Part shown: positions 7,718 to 13,172 of the stretch, in pieces
How the letters are laid out: each line of letters opens with the position of its first letter
How positions within the stretch are numbered: the first letter of the stretch is position 1
UHGV virus genome: UHGV-0142834
Length of the DNA stretch: 13,224 nucleotides
DNA from: a virus
Strand: one strand, 5' to 3'
The notes under the pieces: model-generated
Told to the model about the DNA's origin: nothing
Database searches by the model: none
The model's input: the letters and a program-made list of their open reading frames with translations, nothing else
Translations under genes and position numbers: made by a program

Positions 7718-8341
7718 CTATGCGGCCTCGGAAGGAAGTCCAATCATCTTATTCAAATCTTCTACCCGTAAAGCAGGAAGTGCTGTACTTGCTTTATCTG
7801 CTTCTTTTGGTAGCAATTCTTTGCTTTCAGGCCAAACTTCAATAAGTCGCTTAACTGTTGTGACTGAGTTCAAAGCACCCCATACATTTGATTCGATATC
7901 CTTTTTCAAGGCTTCAAGGTTTTGTTGCAATGCGCAGATTTCATCAAACCTTTTTGTTATTTCGTGTTCTGCGTCAAACATGCACTTATCTTTGGTTGGA
8001 GTAGGGAGAAATATATCTTCGCCATTGCCGTCTTTCCCATATGAATGCCATCCAACCCTTCTGCCAGATACAGTCAGATAAATTGAAGTAGAACGAAAAT
8101 CGTATGAGTAAAATGAACATCCCATCTTTTCAAGTTCTTCACTTATAGCTACCAACTTGGATGATAACTGATCCACTTCCTCAGTTTTCTTTTTACCGCC
8201 AAACGCAATAACTCTGGCGTCAAGTGCAAGCTGGTTCTTTAACTTTGTTACTTCTTCAAGTTCAGTGAAAACCCCAGACTTAATTAAAGCGTTACGAGCG
8301 ATTTCCTCTTTCATTCTCGTAGTTAAGCGGATTGATGACAT
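7718..8341 (-). CDS. Hypothetical protein (207 aa), accessory cassette gene 1
   Basis: Start placed at the ATG 8341..8339 (MSSIRLTTRMKEE..) preceded by GAGAGG with a 7-nt spacer; the track's longer ORF would overlap the end of N. Coiled-coil-like N-terminal half; no motif I recognise. Confidence 0.65.
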   Translation of the reverse strand: MSSIRLTTRMKEEIARNALIKSGVFTELEEVTKLKNQLALDARVIAFGGKKKTEEVDQLSSKLVAISEELEKMGCSFYSYDFRSTSIYLTVSGRRVGWHSYGKDGNGEDIFLPTPTKDKCMFDAEHEITKRFDEICALQQNLEALKKDIESNVWGALNSVTTVKRLIEVWPESKELLPKEADKASTALPALRVEDLNKMIGLPSEAA

Positions 8342-8352
8342 ATTAATTCCTC

Positions 8353-8679
8353 TCAAATAAGTGGTTTGCTGCCTAATTTCATTTTCTGGCGACCAACACA
8401 AGTCACACCCATTTCACTGCGTGGCTTGCTGTACCATGTGCGCTGATTCTTGCGCTCAATACGTTGCAGGTTGCTTTCAATCTGTTCGTGGTATTCAGCC
8501 AGCACCGTAAGGTCTATCGGATTCAGTGCGCTTTCTACTCGTGATTTCGGTTTGCGATTCAGCGAGAGAATAGGGCGGTTAACTGGTTTTGCGCTTACCC
8601 CAACCAACAGGGGATTTGCTGCTTTCCATTGAGCCTGTTTCTCTGCGCGACGTTCGCGGCGGCGTGTTTGTGCATCCAT
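8353..8679 (-). CDS. N: Antitermination protein N (lambda N-like)
   Basis: Start at the ATG 8679..8677 with AGGAG at a 7-nt spacer. MDAQTRRRERRAEKQAQWKAANPLLVGVSAKPVNRPILSLNRKPKSRVESALNPIDLTVLAEYH.. matches the lambda N arginine-rich motif and most of the protein as I recall it; the C-terminus diverges. Confidence 0.9.
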   Translation of the reverse strand: MDAQTRRRERRAEKQAQWKAANPLLVGVSAKPVNRPILSLNRKPKSRVESALNPIDLTVLAEYHEQIESNLQRIERKNQRTWYSKPRSEMGVTCVGRQKMKLGSKPLI

Positions 8680-8922: not shown

Positions 8923-8963
8923 AATATACCTACAGGTAAAACCCATGTCTATACCTGTAGGTA
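8923..8963 (-). promoter_or_regulatory. pL-like promoter with two overlapping dyad operators (OL)
   Basis: On the minus strand: -35 TAGACA (8946..8951), 17-bp spacer, -10 TATATT (8923..8928). Dyad operators TACCTACAGGTA (8927..8938) and TACCTGTAGGTA (8952..8963) overlap the -10 and -35. A third, split dyad TTACCTG-N10-CAGGTAA lies at 8984..9007. Confidence 0.5.
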
Positions 8964-9020: not shown

Positions 9021-9049
9021 TTGATATAAAAAAGCCCGCTTTGCGGGCT
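9021..9049 (-). terminator. Intrinsic terminator ending the cI-membrane protein transcript
   Basis: GC hairpin AGCCCGC-ttt-GCGGGCT (9033..9049) followed on the minus strand by TTTTTTTATAT. It sits 12 nt downstream of the membrane-protein stop at 9061. Confidence 0.7.
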
Positions 9050-9060
9050 GAAAGGAGATG

Positions 9061-9357
9061 TCAGAAGCTATTTGGATTGCTTGGCCATTGCGGCAATTTT
9101 GATTCTACTGGGGTGTGTTTGGGTTTGAGTCCGTTTAAGTAGTCAAGGCGCTCAATGGCGCATTTATACATAGCAATCTGCTCTGATGACATGTCGTCGT
9201 ATGACATGCCTTTGAACTTTTTAATTATCGATTCTGCCTCATGTATAAGATTCTTCTTCCTCATGAGTTCAGCTGTATGCTTAGAGCTTACAGGAGATAA
9301 CTTTGCCCATATGAAGCAGATGATTACAACAGCGACTACTATGCCGGGTATAAACAT
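9061..9357 (-). CDS. Small single-pass membrane protein downstream of cI (rexB/sie slot); candidate superinfection-exclusion or defense protein
   Basis: ATG at 9357 gives a 98-aa product starting MFIPGIVVAVVIICFIWAKL (TM helix) followed by a charged soluble tail. An alternative TTG at 9375 overlaps the cI stop. Co-transcribed with cI and followed by a strong terminator. Confidence 0.6.
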   Translation of the reverse strand: MFIPGIVVAVVIICFIWAKLSPVSSKHTAELMRKKNLIHEAESIIKKFKGMSYDDMSSEQIAMYKCAIERLDYLNGLKPKHTPVESKLPQWPSNPNSF

Positions 9358-9371
9358 TTGCTGCTTTATCC

Positions 9372-10058
9372 TCAAACTTTTGGCAGATCGTCCTGGTCTA
9401 CGTACCTGGTGTGTTTCACAATAGCTGAAACAAAATGCATTTTATCAACTTCTTCAACAGGAAGAGTGATTGGGCGGTGATCACTGTTTATGCTACTAAA
9501 CTGATAATCACCGTCTCTTGTTTTGTTCATGATCTTTATCATGTTGTGACCGTCTTTGGTCCTTACAAAGACTTCATCACCTGGATGTACTGGCGTATTT
9601 GGTTCAATAACAACATATTCTCCTGACTGAATCCTTGGCCACATGCTGTCACCCTTAACCTTCAGACCGTAAGCATCTTTATCGCCGCTGTAGATGCTTA
9701 ACCAACCGGATCTGAATTCAATCATATCCACTGAGCCATCAACTCCCAAAACGGCTTCACCAATTACCGGAACAAAACCCGCACGAACGTTACCCGCAAA
9801 CTCAAGATGGTCCGTAGCTCCAGCTTTACCATCTGCAAGCATGTCCATCCATCCGCGTGGGAGATTAAAAGATTTTTCAATTAGTTCCATCATATCGTCA
9901 GCAATGCGTTTTTTTCCGCTTTTTCCTTCCGGATACAGCATTCTGGAAACGTATGATGGTTCCCTTTCTATTCGACGAGCCAACTCTGAGGCCTTTCCAT
10001 TACAGAATCGGTCTCTTATCTCTATCAGCCTTAGTCGTCTTTGTTCGTATTTATCCAT
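9372..10058 (-). CDS. cI: CI-type prophage repressor (N-terminal HTH, C-terminal LexA-like S24 peptidase domain)
   Basis: 228 aa, ATG at 10058. HTH region NGKASELARRIEREPSYVSRML. C-terminal KVKGDSMWPRIQSGEYVVIEP..GDEVFVRTKDGHNMIKIM contains the S24 Ser/Lys dyad context. Divergent from cro with operators between them. Confidence 0.9.
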   Translation of the reverse strand: MDKYEQRRLRLIEIRDRFCNGKASELARRIEREPSYVSRMLYPEGKSGKKRIADDMMELIEKSFNLPRGWMDMLADGKAGATDHLEFAGNVRAGFVPVIGEAVLGVDGSVDMIEFRSGWLSIYSGDKDAYGLKVKGDSMWPRIQSGEYVVIEPNTPVHPGDEVFVRTKDGHNMIKIMNKTRDGDYQFSSINSDHRPITLPVEEVDKMHFVSAIVKHTRYVDQDDLPKV

Positions 10059-10064
10059 GATTTA

Positions 10065-10134
10065 ATTCTATCTTTGATTACCTGCCGGTAAATAACCTAT
10101 GGGTATTGATTTGCTTTTTACCTACAGGTAAACT
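10065..10134. promoter_or_regulatory. OR region: divergent pRM/pR promoters with dyad operators
   Basis: Operators TTACCTGCCGGTAA (10078..10091) and TACCTACAGGTA (10119..10130), with a weaker AACCTATGGGTA between them. Candidate pR: -35 TTGATT (10106..10111), 17-bp spacer, -10 TAAACT (10129..10134). Candidate pRM -10 TAGAAT on the minus strand (10065..10070), only about 7 nt from the cI ATG with no Shine-Dalgarno sequence, implying a leaderless cI mRNA. Confidence 0.5.
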
Positions 10135-10166: not shown

Positions 10167-10397
10167 ATGGAAGAACTCCGCTTGTATCTGAACTCCCTTT
10201 CACTGGAAGAGCAGAGAGAATTTGCCACCAAGTGCGGAACTTCTATCGGCTATTTGAGGAAAGCACTTAGCCGTAATCATGAATTGGGCGCAGCACTTTG
10301 TGTTCTGATTGAGAAGTTCAGCAATGGTGAAGTGACTCGCAAAGACCTTCATCCGGTTGATTGGGAAAGCATCTGGCCTGAATTAATGGCCGCTTAA
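10167..10397 (+). CDS. cro: Cro-like HTH transcriptional regulator
   Basis: 76 aa, ATG at 10167 with AGGAG at a 7-nt spacer. HTH-like segment EFATKCGTSIGYLRKALS. It is the first rightward gene, divergent from cI. Confidence 0.7.
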   Translation: MEELRLYLNSLSLEEQREFATKCGTSIGYLRKALSRNHELGAALCVLIEKFSNGEVTRKDLHPVDWESIWPELMAA

Positions 10398-10405
10398 GTT
10401 ATTAA

Positions 10406-10437
10406 CGCTCTTACACATCCCCGCCCTGAAAAAGGGC
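10406..10437 (+). promoter_or_regulatory. nutR: nutR site (boxA CGCTCTTAC, boxB GCCCTGAAAAAGGGC)
   Basis: cgctcttac at 10406..10414 and gccctgaaaaagggc at 10423..10437, matching lambda nutR as I recall it. Located between cro and cII. Confidence 0.85.
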
Positions 10438-10513
10438 ATTACCAGAAACAAATCTCTATGGTTTTGCGTTTCTTTGCGAAGCCAACTCTATCTAATCATT
10501 AAGGAAATTATCT

Positions 10514-10795
10514 ATGGGTACTATTGCAACTAAAAGCAAGAAAGCGGCTCGCATCGAGTCAGCCTTGCTGAACAAACTGGCACTGATGGGGCAGAAGACA
10601 TTCGCTCGAGCAATGGGGGTTCCTGAATATCAGGTAAGCCGATGGAAGAATGGTTTCTTCTCGCAGGTAAGCATGATGCTGGCTGTTCTGGAATACGGAA
10701 TCGAAGACGATGAAATGGCTGAGCTGACTAAGCGGCTTGCCAATTACCTGACAAAAGAAAAAGCCCCGAAGAACGGCGAATTCTTCGAGGCCTGA
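10514..10795 (+). CDS. cII: CII transcriptional activator (lambda CII-like)
   Basis: 93 aa. RIESALLNKLALMGQKTFARAMGVPEYQVSRWKNGFFSQVSMMLAVLEYGIEDDEMAELTKRLANYL parallels lambda CII RIESALLNKIAMLGTEKTAEAVGVDKSQISRWKRDWIPKFSMLLAVLEWGVVDDDMARLARQVAAIL. Confidence 0.85.
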   Translation: MGTIATKSKKAARIESALLNKLALMGQKTFARAMGVPEYQVSRWKNGFFSQVSMMLAVLEYGIEDDEMAELTKRLANYLTKEKAPKNGEFFEA

Positions 10796-10820
10796 TGTAG
10801 AAAGACTGGATCAATCCACA
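10751..10820 (-). ncRNA. OOP-like antisense RNA candidate (pO-like promoter, terminator inside the cII 3' end)
   Basis: Minus-strand hairpin GCCTCGAAG-aattcgccgtt-CTTCGGGGC (10763..10791 on +, one mismatch) followed by TTTTTCTTTT (10751..10762). A candidate extended -10 TGtCATAAT on the minus strand at about 10827..10835 places the start near 10820. The geometry matches lambda oop; the 5' end is an estimate. Confidence 0.4.
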
Positions 10821-10829
10821 GGAGTAATT

Positions 10830-10991
10830 ATGACAAAACGTCGTAAGAAATACCAGGAAAAAGAAGAGATTCGACACCCTGATTCACCTGAGGGATTAGT
10901 GGTAGCCGCAGCAAATAACAGGGCGTTCGCAGAGCGCCTTGTTGGTGTTTACAGACTAGCCAAAGCAGGAGTGAAACATGGGCGTCGTTAA
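10830..10991 (+). CDS. Possible small basic ORF (53 aa) between cII and O
   Basis: Hand-translated: [57 protein letters not shown] at a 6-nt spacer before the ATG. Overlaps the O start by 14 nt and the proposed pO -10, so it may be non-coding. Confidence 0.25.
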   Translation: MTKRRKKYQEKEEIRHPDSPEGLVVAAANNRAFAERLVGVYRLAKAGVKHGRR

Positions 10992-11799
10992 GTTAGCTGA
11001 TTACAGGCCTCAACTGGAGGTCGTGGAGCATCGCGTGGCAGATACCGAAGATGGTTTCATGCGCGTTGCTAACGAGATTACTGACAGTCTGCTGATGGCT
11101 GATTTAACCGTCCGGCAGTTGAAGGTGATGCTCGCTATCATGCGCAAGACATACGGATTCAATAAGCCGATGGATCGACTCACAAACACGCAGATAGCAG
11201 CCATGACAGGTATTCATCACACTCATGTTTGCGCTGCCAAGCGCCAGCTTATCGAGCGTAAATTCCTCATTGCTGATGGCGTGAAAATCGGAGTGAACAA
11301 GGTGGTTTCTCAGTGGATTAGCCAGGACAGCTTAACATTAGCTAAAACAGCTAATAAAACATTAGCCAAGTCGGCTAATGGGTATAAGCCAAGTCAGCTA
11401 AACACAAAAGACAATATACAAAAGACAATAAATACAAATACCCCCTTACCCCCTAACGGGGGTGGCGATGGGCAGGTTAAACCTGAACGTCGCAAGGCAG
11501 AACGAATCGACTACGAATCCTTCCTGAACGCCTACAACACCGAAGTCGGTGACAGACTGCCACACGCTGTTGCGGTCAACGAGAAACGCAAACGCCGCCT
11601 GAAGAAAATCATCCCGCAACTGAAAACGCCAAACGTGGACGGTTTCAGAGCGTATGTCAGGGCGTTTGTGCATCAGGCCAAGCCGTTTTACTTCGGAGAC
11701 AACGACACGGGCTGGACAGCTGATTTTGATTACCTGCTGAGGGAAGATTCGTTAACGGGAGTACGGGAAGGGAAGTTTGCAGACAGGGGGATTGCATGA
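10978..11799 (+). CDS. O: Replication initiation protein, lambda O-like N-terminal domain
   Basis: 273 aa, ATG at 10978 with AGGAG at a 7-nt spacer. [53 protein letters not shown] parallels lambda O N-domain ..ADLTKRQFKVLLAILRKTYGWNKPMDRITDSQLSEIT. Contains internal iterons. Confidence 0.85.
11318..11445. repeat. Candidate replication origin: four 17-18 bp iterons with internal dyad symmetry followed by an A-rich tract, inside the O gene
   Basis: ttagccaggacagcttaa (11318..11335), ttagctaaaacagctaa (11338..11354), ttagccaagtcggctaa (11362..11378), taagccaagtcagctaa (11385..11401), then acacaaaagacaatatacaaaagacaataaatacaaata. Same layout as ori-lambda within O. Confidence 0.6.
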
Positions 11800-13172
11800 A
11801 ACAGGATATCGAAGCGAGCGTTATCGGTGGCCTGCTGATTGGTGGATTAACACCAACTGCCAGTGACGTTCTGGCAACGCTTGAGCCGGAAGCGTTTTCA
11901 ATTCCGCTCTACCGGAAAGCCTTCGAGGTTATCCGCAAGCAGGCGCGAAACAGAAATTTAATCGACGCGCTGATGGTTGCCGAGGCGTGCGGAGAGGAGC
12001 ATTTCACGTCAATCCTGATGACCAGCAAAAACTGCCCGAGTTCCGCAAACCTGAAGGGATATGCCGGAATGGTCGCGGATAACTATCACCGCCGTCTGGT
12101 GCTGGAAATCATGGATGAAATGCGTGAACCAATTCAGAGCGGAACCATCGACGCATCGAGTCAGGCGATGGATGAACTTGTAAAGCGTCTTTCAGCCATC
12201 AGAAAGCCCCGTGACGAGGTTAAACCTGTACGGTTAGGGGAAATCATAACTGACTACACTGACATGCTTGACAGGCGTCTGAGGAACGGAGAAGAGTCAG
12301 ATACCCTGAAGACCGGAATCGAAGAACTTGATGCTATCACCGGAGGGATGAACGCGGAAGACCTGGTGATAATAGCTGCTCGTCCTGGTATGGGGAAAAC
12401 CGAACTGGCGCTGAAGATTGCCGAAGGCGTTGCAAGCCGTGTTATTCCTGGTTCTGACGTCCGGCGCGGAGTGTTGATTTTCTCGATGGAAATGAGCGCA
12501 TTGCAGATTGCAGAGCGAAGCATTGCCAACGCCGGGAGGATGTCGGTTAGCGTGCTACGAAATCCTGCATCGATGGATGACGAAGGCTGGGCGCGCGTTG
12601 CTAACGGCATGAATCAGCTTGCGGATTTGGATGTATGGGTAGTCGATGCATCGCGGTTATCGGTCGAAGAAATACGCTCAATCGCAGAACGGCACAAACA
12701 GGAAAATCCAAACCTGTCACTCATCATGGCGGATTATCTTGGCCTGATTGAGAAGCCGAAAGCAGACCGCAACGACCTCGCAATTGCTCACATCTCAGGA
12801 AGCCTTAAGGCGATGGCGAAAGACCTGAAAACGCCTGTTATCTCCCTAAGTCAGCTTTCGCGCGATGTTGAGAAGCGACCAAACAAACGCCCGACAAACG
12901 CAGATTTGCGTGATTCAGGAAGCATTGAACAGGACGCAGACTCAATCATCATGCTCTATAGGGAAGCGGTATATGACGAGAACAGTAGCGCCGCGCCATT
13001 TGCTGAAATCATCGTGACGAAAAACCGTTTTGGCTCGCTTGGTACGGTTTACCAGCGGTTCTGCAACGGACACTTTGTTGCATGTGACCAGGATGAAGCC
13101 AGACAGATTTGCACAGCATCAAATGCACCCGCTGCACGTGGCAGGCGATATGCACAAGGGGCTGACGTATGA
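11796..13172 (+). CDS. Replicative DNA helicase, DnaB family (phage-encoded)
   Basis: 458 aa. The ATG overlaps the O stop (ATGA). Walker A context [18 protein letters not shown]. Downstream DnaB-like motifs ([38 protein letters not shown]). Confidence 0.9.

Follow-up and report, generated by a model that had tools for sequence, protein, structure and literature searches.

The 3′ end of cII and the spacer behind it very probably carry a lambdoid prophage's oop gene. Its allele is common to phages L, ST104, HK620 and BTP1, and its antisense mechanism is very probably that of the lambda type. The gene is encoded on the minus strand of a stretch of 13,224 nucleotides (UHGV virus genome UHGV-0142834), which is called the window throughout, and the coordinates of its parts and of the neighbouring genes are collected in Table 1. 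Judged from the sequence, the element appears to have every trait by which the lambdoid oop/pO/tO family is recognised, and the gene is real, already known and ordinary. The existence of the transcript has been shown by others on identical or near-identical sequence, in BTP1 and P22; for the window, the transcript is a prediction.

Table 1. Position of the oop element and of the surrounding genes in the window
Feature	Coordinates	Strand	Remarks
cI	9372-10058	minus	Peptidase_S24 repressor
cro	10167-10397	rightward	upstream of cII
cII	10514-10795	plus	antisense target; Pfam Phage_CII, E = 7.6e-30
T-run of the terminator, TTTTTCTTTT	10762..10753	minus	read from the sequence
tO-type intrinsic terminator hairpin, AGGCCTCGAAGAATTCGCCGTTCTTCGGGGCTT	10793..10761	minus	5-nt loop; terminator scan and RNAfold
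Predicted oop RNA, about 64-66 nt	10754..10819	minus	5′ end from the lambda alignment; 3′ end within the T-run
CTG-N10-CAG, LexA-box-like palindrome, CTGGATCAATCCACAG	10806-10821		lies across the transcription start; position as in lambda
pO extended -10, TGTCATAAT	10835..10827	minus	CATAAT 10832..10827; TG 10835..10834
Candidate -35, TGGTAT	10855..10850	minus	weak, 2/6 matches; 17-bp spacer; inferred
53-aa ORF	10830-10991	plus	HK97 gp53 / ST104 orf27 type; phrog_1331
O-like protein	10978-11799		Phage_rep_O
DnaB-type helicase gene	11796-13172		

The window covers a lambdoid prophage of E. coli from the integrase to the replication genes, and chromosomal prophages in six complete E. coli genomes are 99-99.6% identical to it over 2.6 kb around oop. 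Since it contains cI, probable OR and OL operators, cro, nutR, a TTGC-N6-TTGC repeat, cII, an O-like gene with iterons and a DnaB-like gene, it forms a complete lysis-lysogeny and replication module in the style of lambda. The immunity region is flanked by operator-like TACCTnnAGGTA palindromes at 8927-8963 and 10079-10130, with two exact copies to its left and one exact and two degenerate copies between cI and cro; they probably serve this immunity type as OL and OR. Within 10407-10477, upstream of cII, the cro-cII spacer has a boxA-like CGCTCTTA and a GCCCTGAAAAAGGGC hairpin, the latter presumably a match to the boxB of lambda nutR. The TTGC-N6-TTGC at 10464-10477 has the pattern of the CII-binding repeat that is annotated in related phage records, and it marks a probable pRE. 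Inside the O-like gene, four 18-nt iterons that resemble ATTAGCCAAGTCGGCTAA, with a spacing of 20-24 bp (11317-11401), are followed by a tandem ACAAAAGACAATA(T/A) repeat in the region up to 11431. Together they form the presumed replication origin, at 11317-11431. A terminator-like match of the scan at 11380..11360 is actually one of the iteron palindromes.

Further to the left, a 104-aa ORF (9061-9375, minus strand) lies directly downstream of cI, in the position of lambda rex. It has no Pfam match, a strong intrinsic terminator, AGCCCGCAAAGCGGGCTTTTTTAT, comes after it at about 9050-9027 (the region as a whole being 9026-9375, minus strand), and it is probably an accessory gene expressed in lysogeny. 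The early-left region has, on the minus strand at 7718-8401, the gene for a 227-aa protein with a Pfam match to Nmad5 (nucleotide modification associated domain 5, E = 3.4e-70).

The likeness of the element to lambda oop is one of sequence as well as of layout. In the minus-strand alignment, the TTTGTCATAATtACTCCTGTgGATtGATCCAGT block is identical at 30 of 33 bases to the lambda sequence that runs from the -10 through the start site to the 15th transcribed base, the aligned stretches being TTTGTCATAATGACTCCTGTTGATAGATCCAGT in lambda and TTTGTCATAATTACTCCTGTGGATTGATCCAGT in the window. The lambda stretch TTTGTCATAATGACTCCTGTTGATAGATCCAGT is one that we take to be the pO -10 (CATAAT) followed by the oop 5′ end (GUUGAUAGAUCCAGU...). 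This assignment agrees with the published placement of the lambda pO- point mutation, a -10 mutation 2 bp ahead of the start codon of O (PMC3985674); the mutated position corresponds to 10827 in the window, the last T of CATAAT. The geometry of the lambda oop RNA, which the first-pass annotation of the window had recognised here, is thus upheld by direct homology, beyond mere resemblance.

The element shares with lambda an RNA that would start in the spacer after cII and end inside the cII 3′ end, a homologous -10, start region and first 15 nt, a promoter that overlaps the start codon of the next gene, an intrinsic terminator with G·U pairs, and a CTG-N10-CAG across the start site. It differs from lambda in the length of the RNA (about 65 nt predicted against 77 nt), in the overlap with cII (42 nt against 55 nt), in the -35 (TGGTAT against TTGAGT) and in the gene downstream, which is the 53-aa ORF instead of O. 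The terminator sequence is unrelated to that of lambda because the cII allele in the window is of the P22/L type, and a small 5+3-bp hairpin is found where lambda oop has a long 5′ stem-loop.

The promoter proper is the candidate extended -10 that had been read earlier as TGtCATAAT, and it is confirmed as TGTCATAAT. Both strands of the 13.2-kb window together contain no other TGNYATAAT, but chance alone would supply about one, and the motif by itself is not significant. Its evidential weight lies in its position, on the same strand as the terminator and about 70 nt upstream of it, and in its conservation. A generic sigma-70 scan did not call pO, since the scan requires at least 4/6 matches in the -35 and the -35 of pO is weak; pO was identified via homology to lambda instead. 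The -35 region holds a CCTGG (a Dcm-type CCWGG site, within 10850-10857), about 17-18 bp upstream of CATAAT. TGGnAn/CCTGG stands at a fixed distance upstream of three non-homologous genes, those of the gp53 type, the orf48 type and the 214-aa type, and the spacing of CCTGG is kept in phage ENT47670 despite indels. The conserved CCTGG may be a real -35 (TGGnAn) or another signal.

The 5′ end of the predicted RNA is placed at G10819 by alignment to the mapped start of lambda oop. In P22, however, the small-RNA reads set in 3 nt further downstream, so that the 5′ end may lie exactly at 10819 or else at 10816-10817. From G10819 to the T-run the RNA would measure about 64-66 nt, within the 60-70 nt that had been estimated in the first-pass annotation. 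The entire predicted RNA (10819..10753) folds at -27.2 kcal/mol (z = -4.86). It has perfect complementarity over about 66 nt to the pR transcript, namely to the cII-orf53 spacer and to the last 42 nt of cII, which make up 13 codons and the stop. The LexA-like palindrome across the start has 11/16 matches to the consensus, against 12/16 in lambda, and CTG-N10-CAG occurs eight times in the window, where 2.9 occurrences are expected. It lies across the oop start in 128 of the 133 instances collected from relatives (described below), lambda included. For lambda, PMC5869508 refers to a LexA site inside oop-pO, and by analogy the palindrome may be the equivalent of that site.

The terminator had been described as a 9-bp hairpin with one mismatch, followed by a T-run within the last codons of cII. 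Both parts are found on the minus strand, as AGGCCTCGAAGAATTCGCCGTTCTTCGGGGCTT and TTTTTCTTTT, but the hairpin was understated, since RNAfold gives 13-14 contiguous pairs, three of them G·U. In the terminator scan, it has 14 pairs, six of them G-C, and a loop of 5 nt. Because the cII stop codon is at 10793-10795, the hairpin and the T-run lie within the last 13 codons of cII plus the stop. As for the folding energy, the 44-nt hairpin reaches -20.0 kcal/mol, against -8.75 ± 2.56 kcal/mol for shuffled sequences (z = -4.39), and none of 200 shuffles is as good; the hairpin is stable.

Transcripts have been reported for two close relatives. In the Salmonella phage BTP1, OOP-BTP1 was annotated from RNA-seq by Owen et al., at the position of lambda OOP (PMC7067206). 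BTP1 is identical to the window from 10750 to 10816 and differs from it at 10817 and 10823, in the start region, while all but one base of the transcribed sequence match. In P22, a 63-nt oop RNA has been sequenced, GAUUGAUCCAGUCUUUCUACAUCAGGCCUCAAAACUGUUCCCGCAGUCUUGAGGCUUUUCUUU (PMC13397905, Table 2), and the same source credits P22 oop to Backhaus & Petri 1984. The first 30 nt of the sequenced P22 RNA equal 10816..10787 of the window. The 5′ half of P22 oop is therefore the same as in the window, whereas the hairpin allele is different, and the P22 hairpin, CCUCAAAACUG...CAGUCUUGAGG, has five compensatory pair changes relative to it. BTP1, L, ST104 and HK620 have a terminator hairpin identical to that of the window. 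The gene downstream is of the orf48 type in P22 and BTP1 and of the gp53 type in the window.

In the mechanism proposed for the window, the host sigma-70 RNA polymerase would start at the constitutive extended -10 promoter pO (TGTCATAAT), which overlaps the start codon of the downstream gene. It would transcribe leftward from about G10819 and stop at the terminator inside the cII end, giving a highly structured RNA of about 65 nt. This RNA would pair with the pR transcript along the spacer ahead of the 53-aa ORF and along the final 42 nt of cII. As in lambda, the duplex would then be cut by RNase III, the cII message would decay, and the lower level of CII would bias the decision towards lytic growth. 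Convergent transcription from pO may also damp the read-through from pR towards the origin in the O-like gene. The roles given here to RNase III and LexA, and the consequences for CII and for replication, are all expected by analogy with lambda, the only phage for which RNase III-dependent down-regulation of cII by OOP is known (Krinke & Wulff 1987, 1990, cited in PMC7067206, PMC5869508 and PMC2327240).

It is unlikely, even though several observations on lambda point that way, that the RNA is made with a main job other than that of a cII antisense, pO acting in cis to tune pR transcription into the origin, O-some assembly and replication. The lambda pO- mutation raises pR read-through and impairs replication of phage and plasmid, and the activity of pO, which lowers this read-through, is needed for efficient replication from the origin (PMC3985674). 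Such a role in replication could apply to the window, since some 500 bp separate pO from the four iterons that lie downstream of it in the O-like gene. Mutations in lambda oop did not restore CII after UV induction, and oop had little or no role in removing CII after SOS induction (PMC2327240), which makes the quantitative weight of the antisense route uncertain even in lambda. However, the terminator is always inside cII, in every allele, and a promoter that acts only in cis would not need to overlap cII. Moreover, OOP expressed from a plasmid suppresses CII activities (PMC5869508), and its overproduction favours lysis (PMC5869508; PMC12197685). The antisense role and the role of pO in cis are not mutually exclusive.

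Across unrelated cII alleles and four unrelated downstream genes, hardly any change is seen in the 5′ third of the RNA (10796-10819) or in the pO core. Because they are near-invariant among lambdoid phages, it is conceivable that oop RNA pairs in trans with the transcripts of other members of the group, or else that the block is a portable recombination junction with its own regulation, but both ideas must be regarded as rather improbable extensions of what the sequences suggest. If the former were true, the RNA would pair with the cII-O spacer in the pR transcript of a heteroimmune co-resident or superinfecting phage, and there would be cross-talk between prophages. An equal alternative is that the block, with its LexA-like box, ribosome-binding site, ATG, -10 and CCTGG at the -35, is portable as a unit.

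The antisense RNA gene proposed here can be followed through many relatives. An exact-pattern scan of IMG/VR with the pO core CATAATKACTCCYGTKGATWGATCCAGT gave at least 120 contigs; with lambda, HK97, a 933W-type phage, P22, L, ST104, HK620, HK140, ES18 and others, the collection comes to 133 instances. In all 133, a hairpin of -10 kcal/mol or lower with a T-run is found 64-80 nt downstream of the pO core. The predicted RNA is 64-65 nt long in the P22/L class, to which the window belongs (52 instances), and 77-80 nt long in the lambda/HK97/933W class (81 instances). The hairpin sequences are unrelated between cII alleles, yet they are always paired, by way of compensatory changes. In a manual pair table, which is not phylogeny-aware, 13 hairpin variants retain 8-14 pairs, with compensatory double changes; at stem position 7, for example, where the window has G-C, Atlantibacter has U-A and P22 has A-U. 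Every one of the 13 has one to three G·U pairs, which become C·A mismatches in the plus-strand RNA. The pairs were tabulated from the base of the stem in Python and not taken from a MAFFT alignment, since the hairpins of P22 and L differ from each other in arm and loop length and the alignment of the short-class RNAs is unsuitable, with a misaligned 3′ arm. A search of genome contigs with CII returned seven loci, and distant prophage-like loci found via the cII homologue, on Lonsdalea, Atlantibacter and Pantoea contigs, preserve this layout, with CATAAT, hairpin and T-run all in place. Closer to the window, the 87-nt interval 10750-10836 is 100% identical in HK446, HK544, HK542, mEpX2, mEp213, mEp043 and CP-1639, and 110 phage records cover at least 80% of it. 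By these comparisons, the window is to be placed in the short P22/L class, with the terminator allele of L, ST104, HK620 and BTP1.

The terminator pattern is the one that selection for a minus-strand terminator would predict, and it is not predicted by coding constraint alone. It is therefore very improbable that the block and the hairpin are by-products of the start signals downstream and of the coding of the CII C-terminus, with no functional RNA at all. Coding constraint accounts for neither the compensatory pairs, nor T-runs in 133/133 instances, nor G·U pairs confined to the minus strand, even though the hairpin does lie in coding sequence and the -35 is weak. Part of the conservation of the block is indeed explained by the AGGAG ribosome-binding site (10820-10824) and the ATG (10830) inside it, which serve four different downstream genes, but conserved sequence continues into the spacer for 15 nt beyond the ribosome-binding site, on its upstream side, and the RNA itself has been detected in BTP1 and P22. 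Least credible of all is a plus-strand role for the hairpin, as a rightward terminator or as an mRNA-stabilising 3′ stem-loop of the cro-cII transcript: the inverted repeat does fold on that strand too, but at -12.6 kcal/mol (z = -2.6) against -20.0 kcal/mol on the minus strand, three pairs turn into C·A mismatches, an A-run precedes the stem in the window sequence and no T-run follows it, and transcription from pR must go on into the replication genes. With a weaker fold and no T-run on the plus strand, a rightward terminator was rejected.

The oop RNA does not compete with the 53-aa ORF for the spacer, as the first-pass annotation had supposed. The transcribed part (10819..about 10754) ends 11 nt before the ATG at 10830, and the rivalry was rejected because the transcribed and coding parts do not overlap and the ORF is under purifying selection. 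The sole overlap is that of the promoter with the first codons of the ORF, as lambda pO overlaps O: the ATG is inside the pO -10, with AGGAG (10820-10824) ahead of it as ribosome-binding site. Over its whole length, the 53-aa protein is a match to phrog_1331 (E = 1.4e-37). Its gene shows 19 synonymous and seven mostly conservative non-synonymous codon differences from its homologue in Cronobacter phage ENT47670, a ratio that argues for purifying selection on the protein. It is annotated in ST104, HK97 and ES18. On this evidence the ORF is a real conserved gene that coexists with the RNA. Its final 14 nt (10978-10991) are shared with the start of the O-like gene, an arrangement that fits translational coupling.

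The junction between the RNA and the downstream gene is a place where different genes have been joined. The ATTATG in the pO -10 starts four unrelated genes, which are lambda O, the 53-aa gene of the gp53 type, the 48-aa gene of the P22 orf48 type and the gene of a 214-aa protein, and over 133 loci the junction at 10820-10832 has a mosaic breakpoint within a few codons after the ATG. The 48-aa protein of the P22 orf48 type is labelled 'tail protein' in RefSeq records (mEp235, for example) and in phrog_1913; given the position of its gene in the replication region, this label looks like a propagated mis-annotation.

In the phage and E. coli records whose feature tables were examined, no oop RNA gene is annotated at this site, and the record of phage L marks minus-strand terminators there without an RNA gene. 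A scan of Rfam at E ≤ 10 gave no family above its gathering score on the oop element; the two overlapping hits, ctRNA_p42d (19 bits, E = 5.3) and sX13 (18.4 bits), were at chance level. Since there is no oop family among the matches, Rfam 15 seemingly lacks an oop model, and the result says nothing against membership in the oop family. Being absent from the feature tables examined and matched by no Rfam family, the oop gene is routinely missed. Its recognition here teaches nothing further about how the choice between lysis and lysogeny is made and matters mainly for annotation, in that the spacer and the end of cII should not be misread as novel elements; the coexistence of the 53-aa ORF with the oop RNA is made plain as well.
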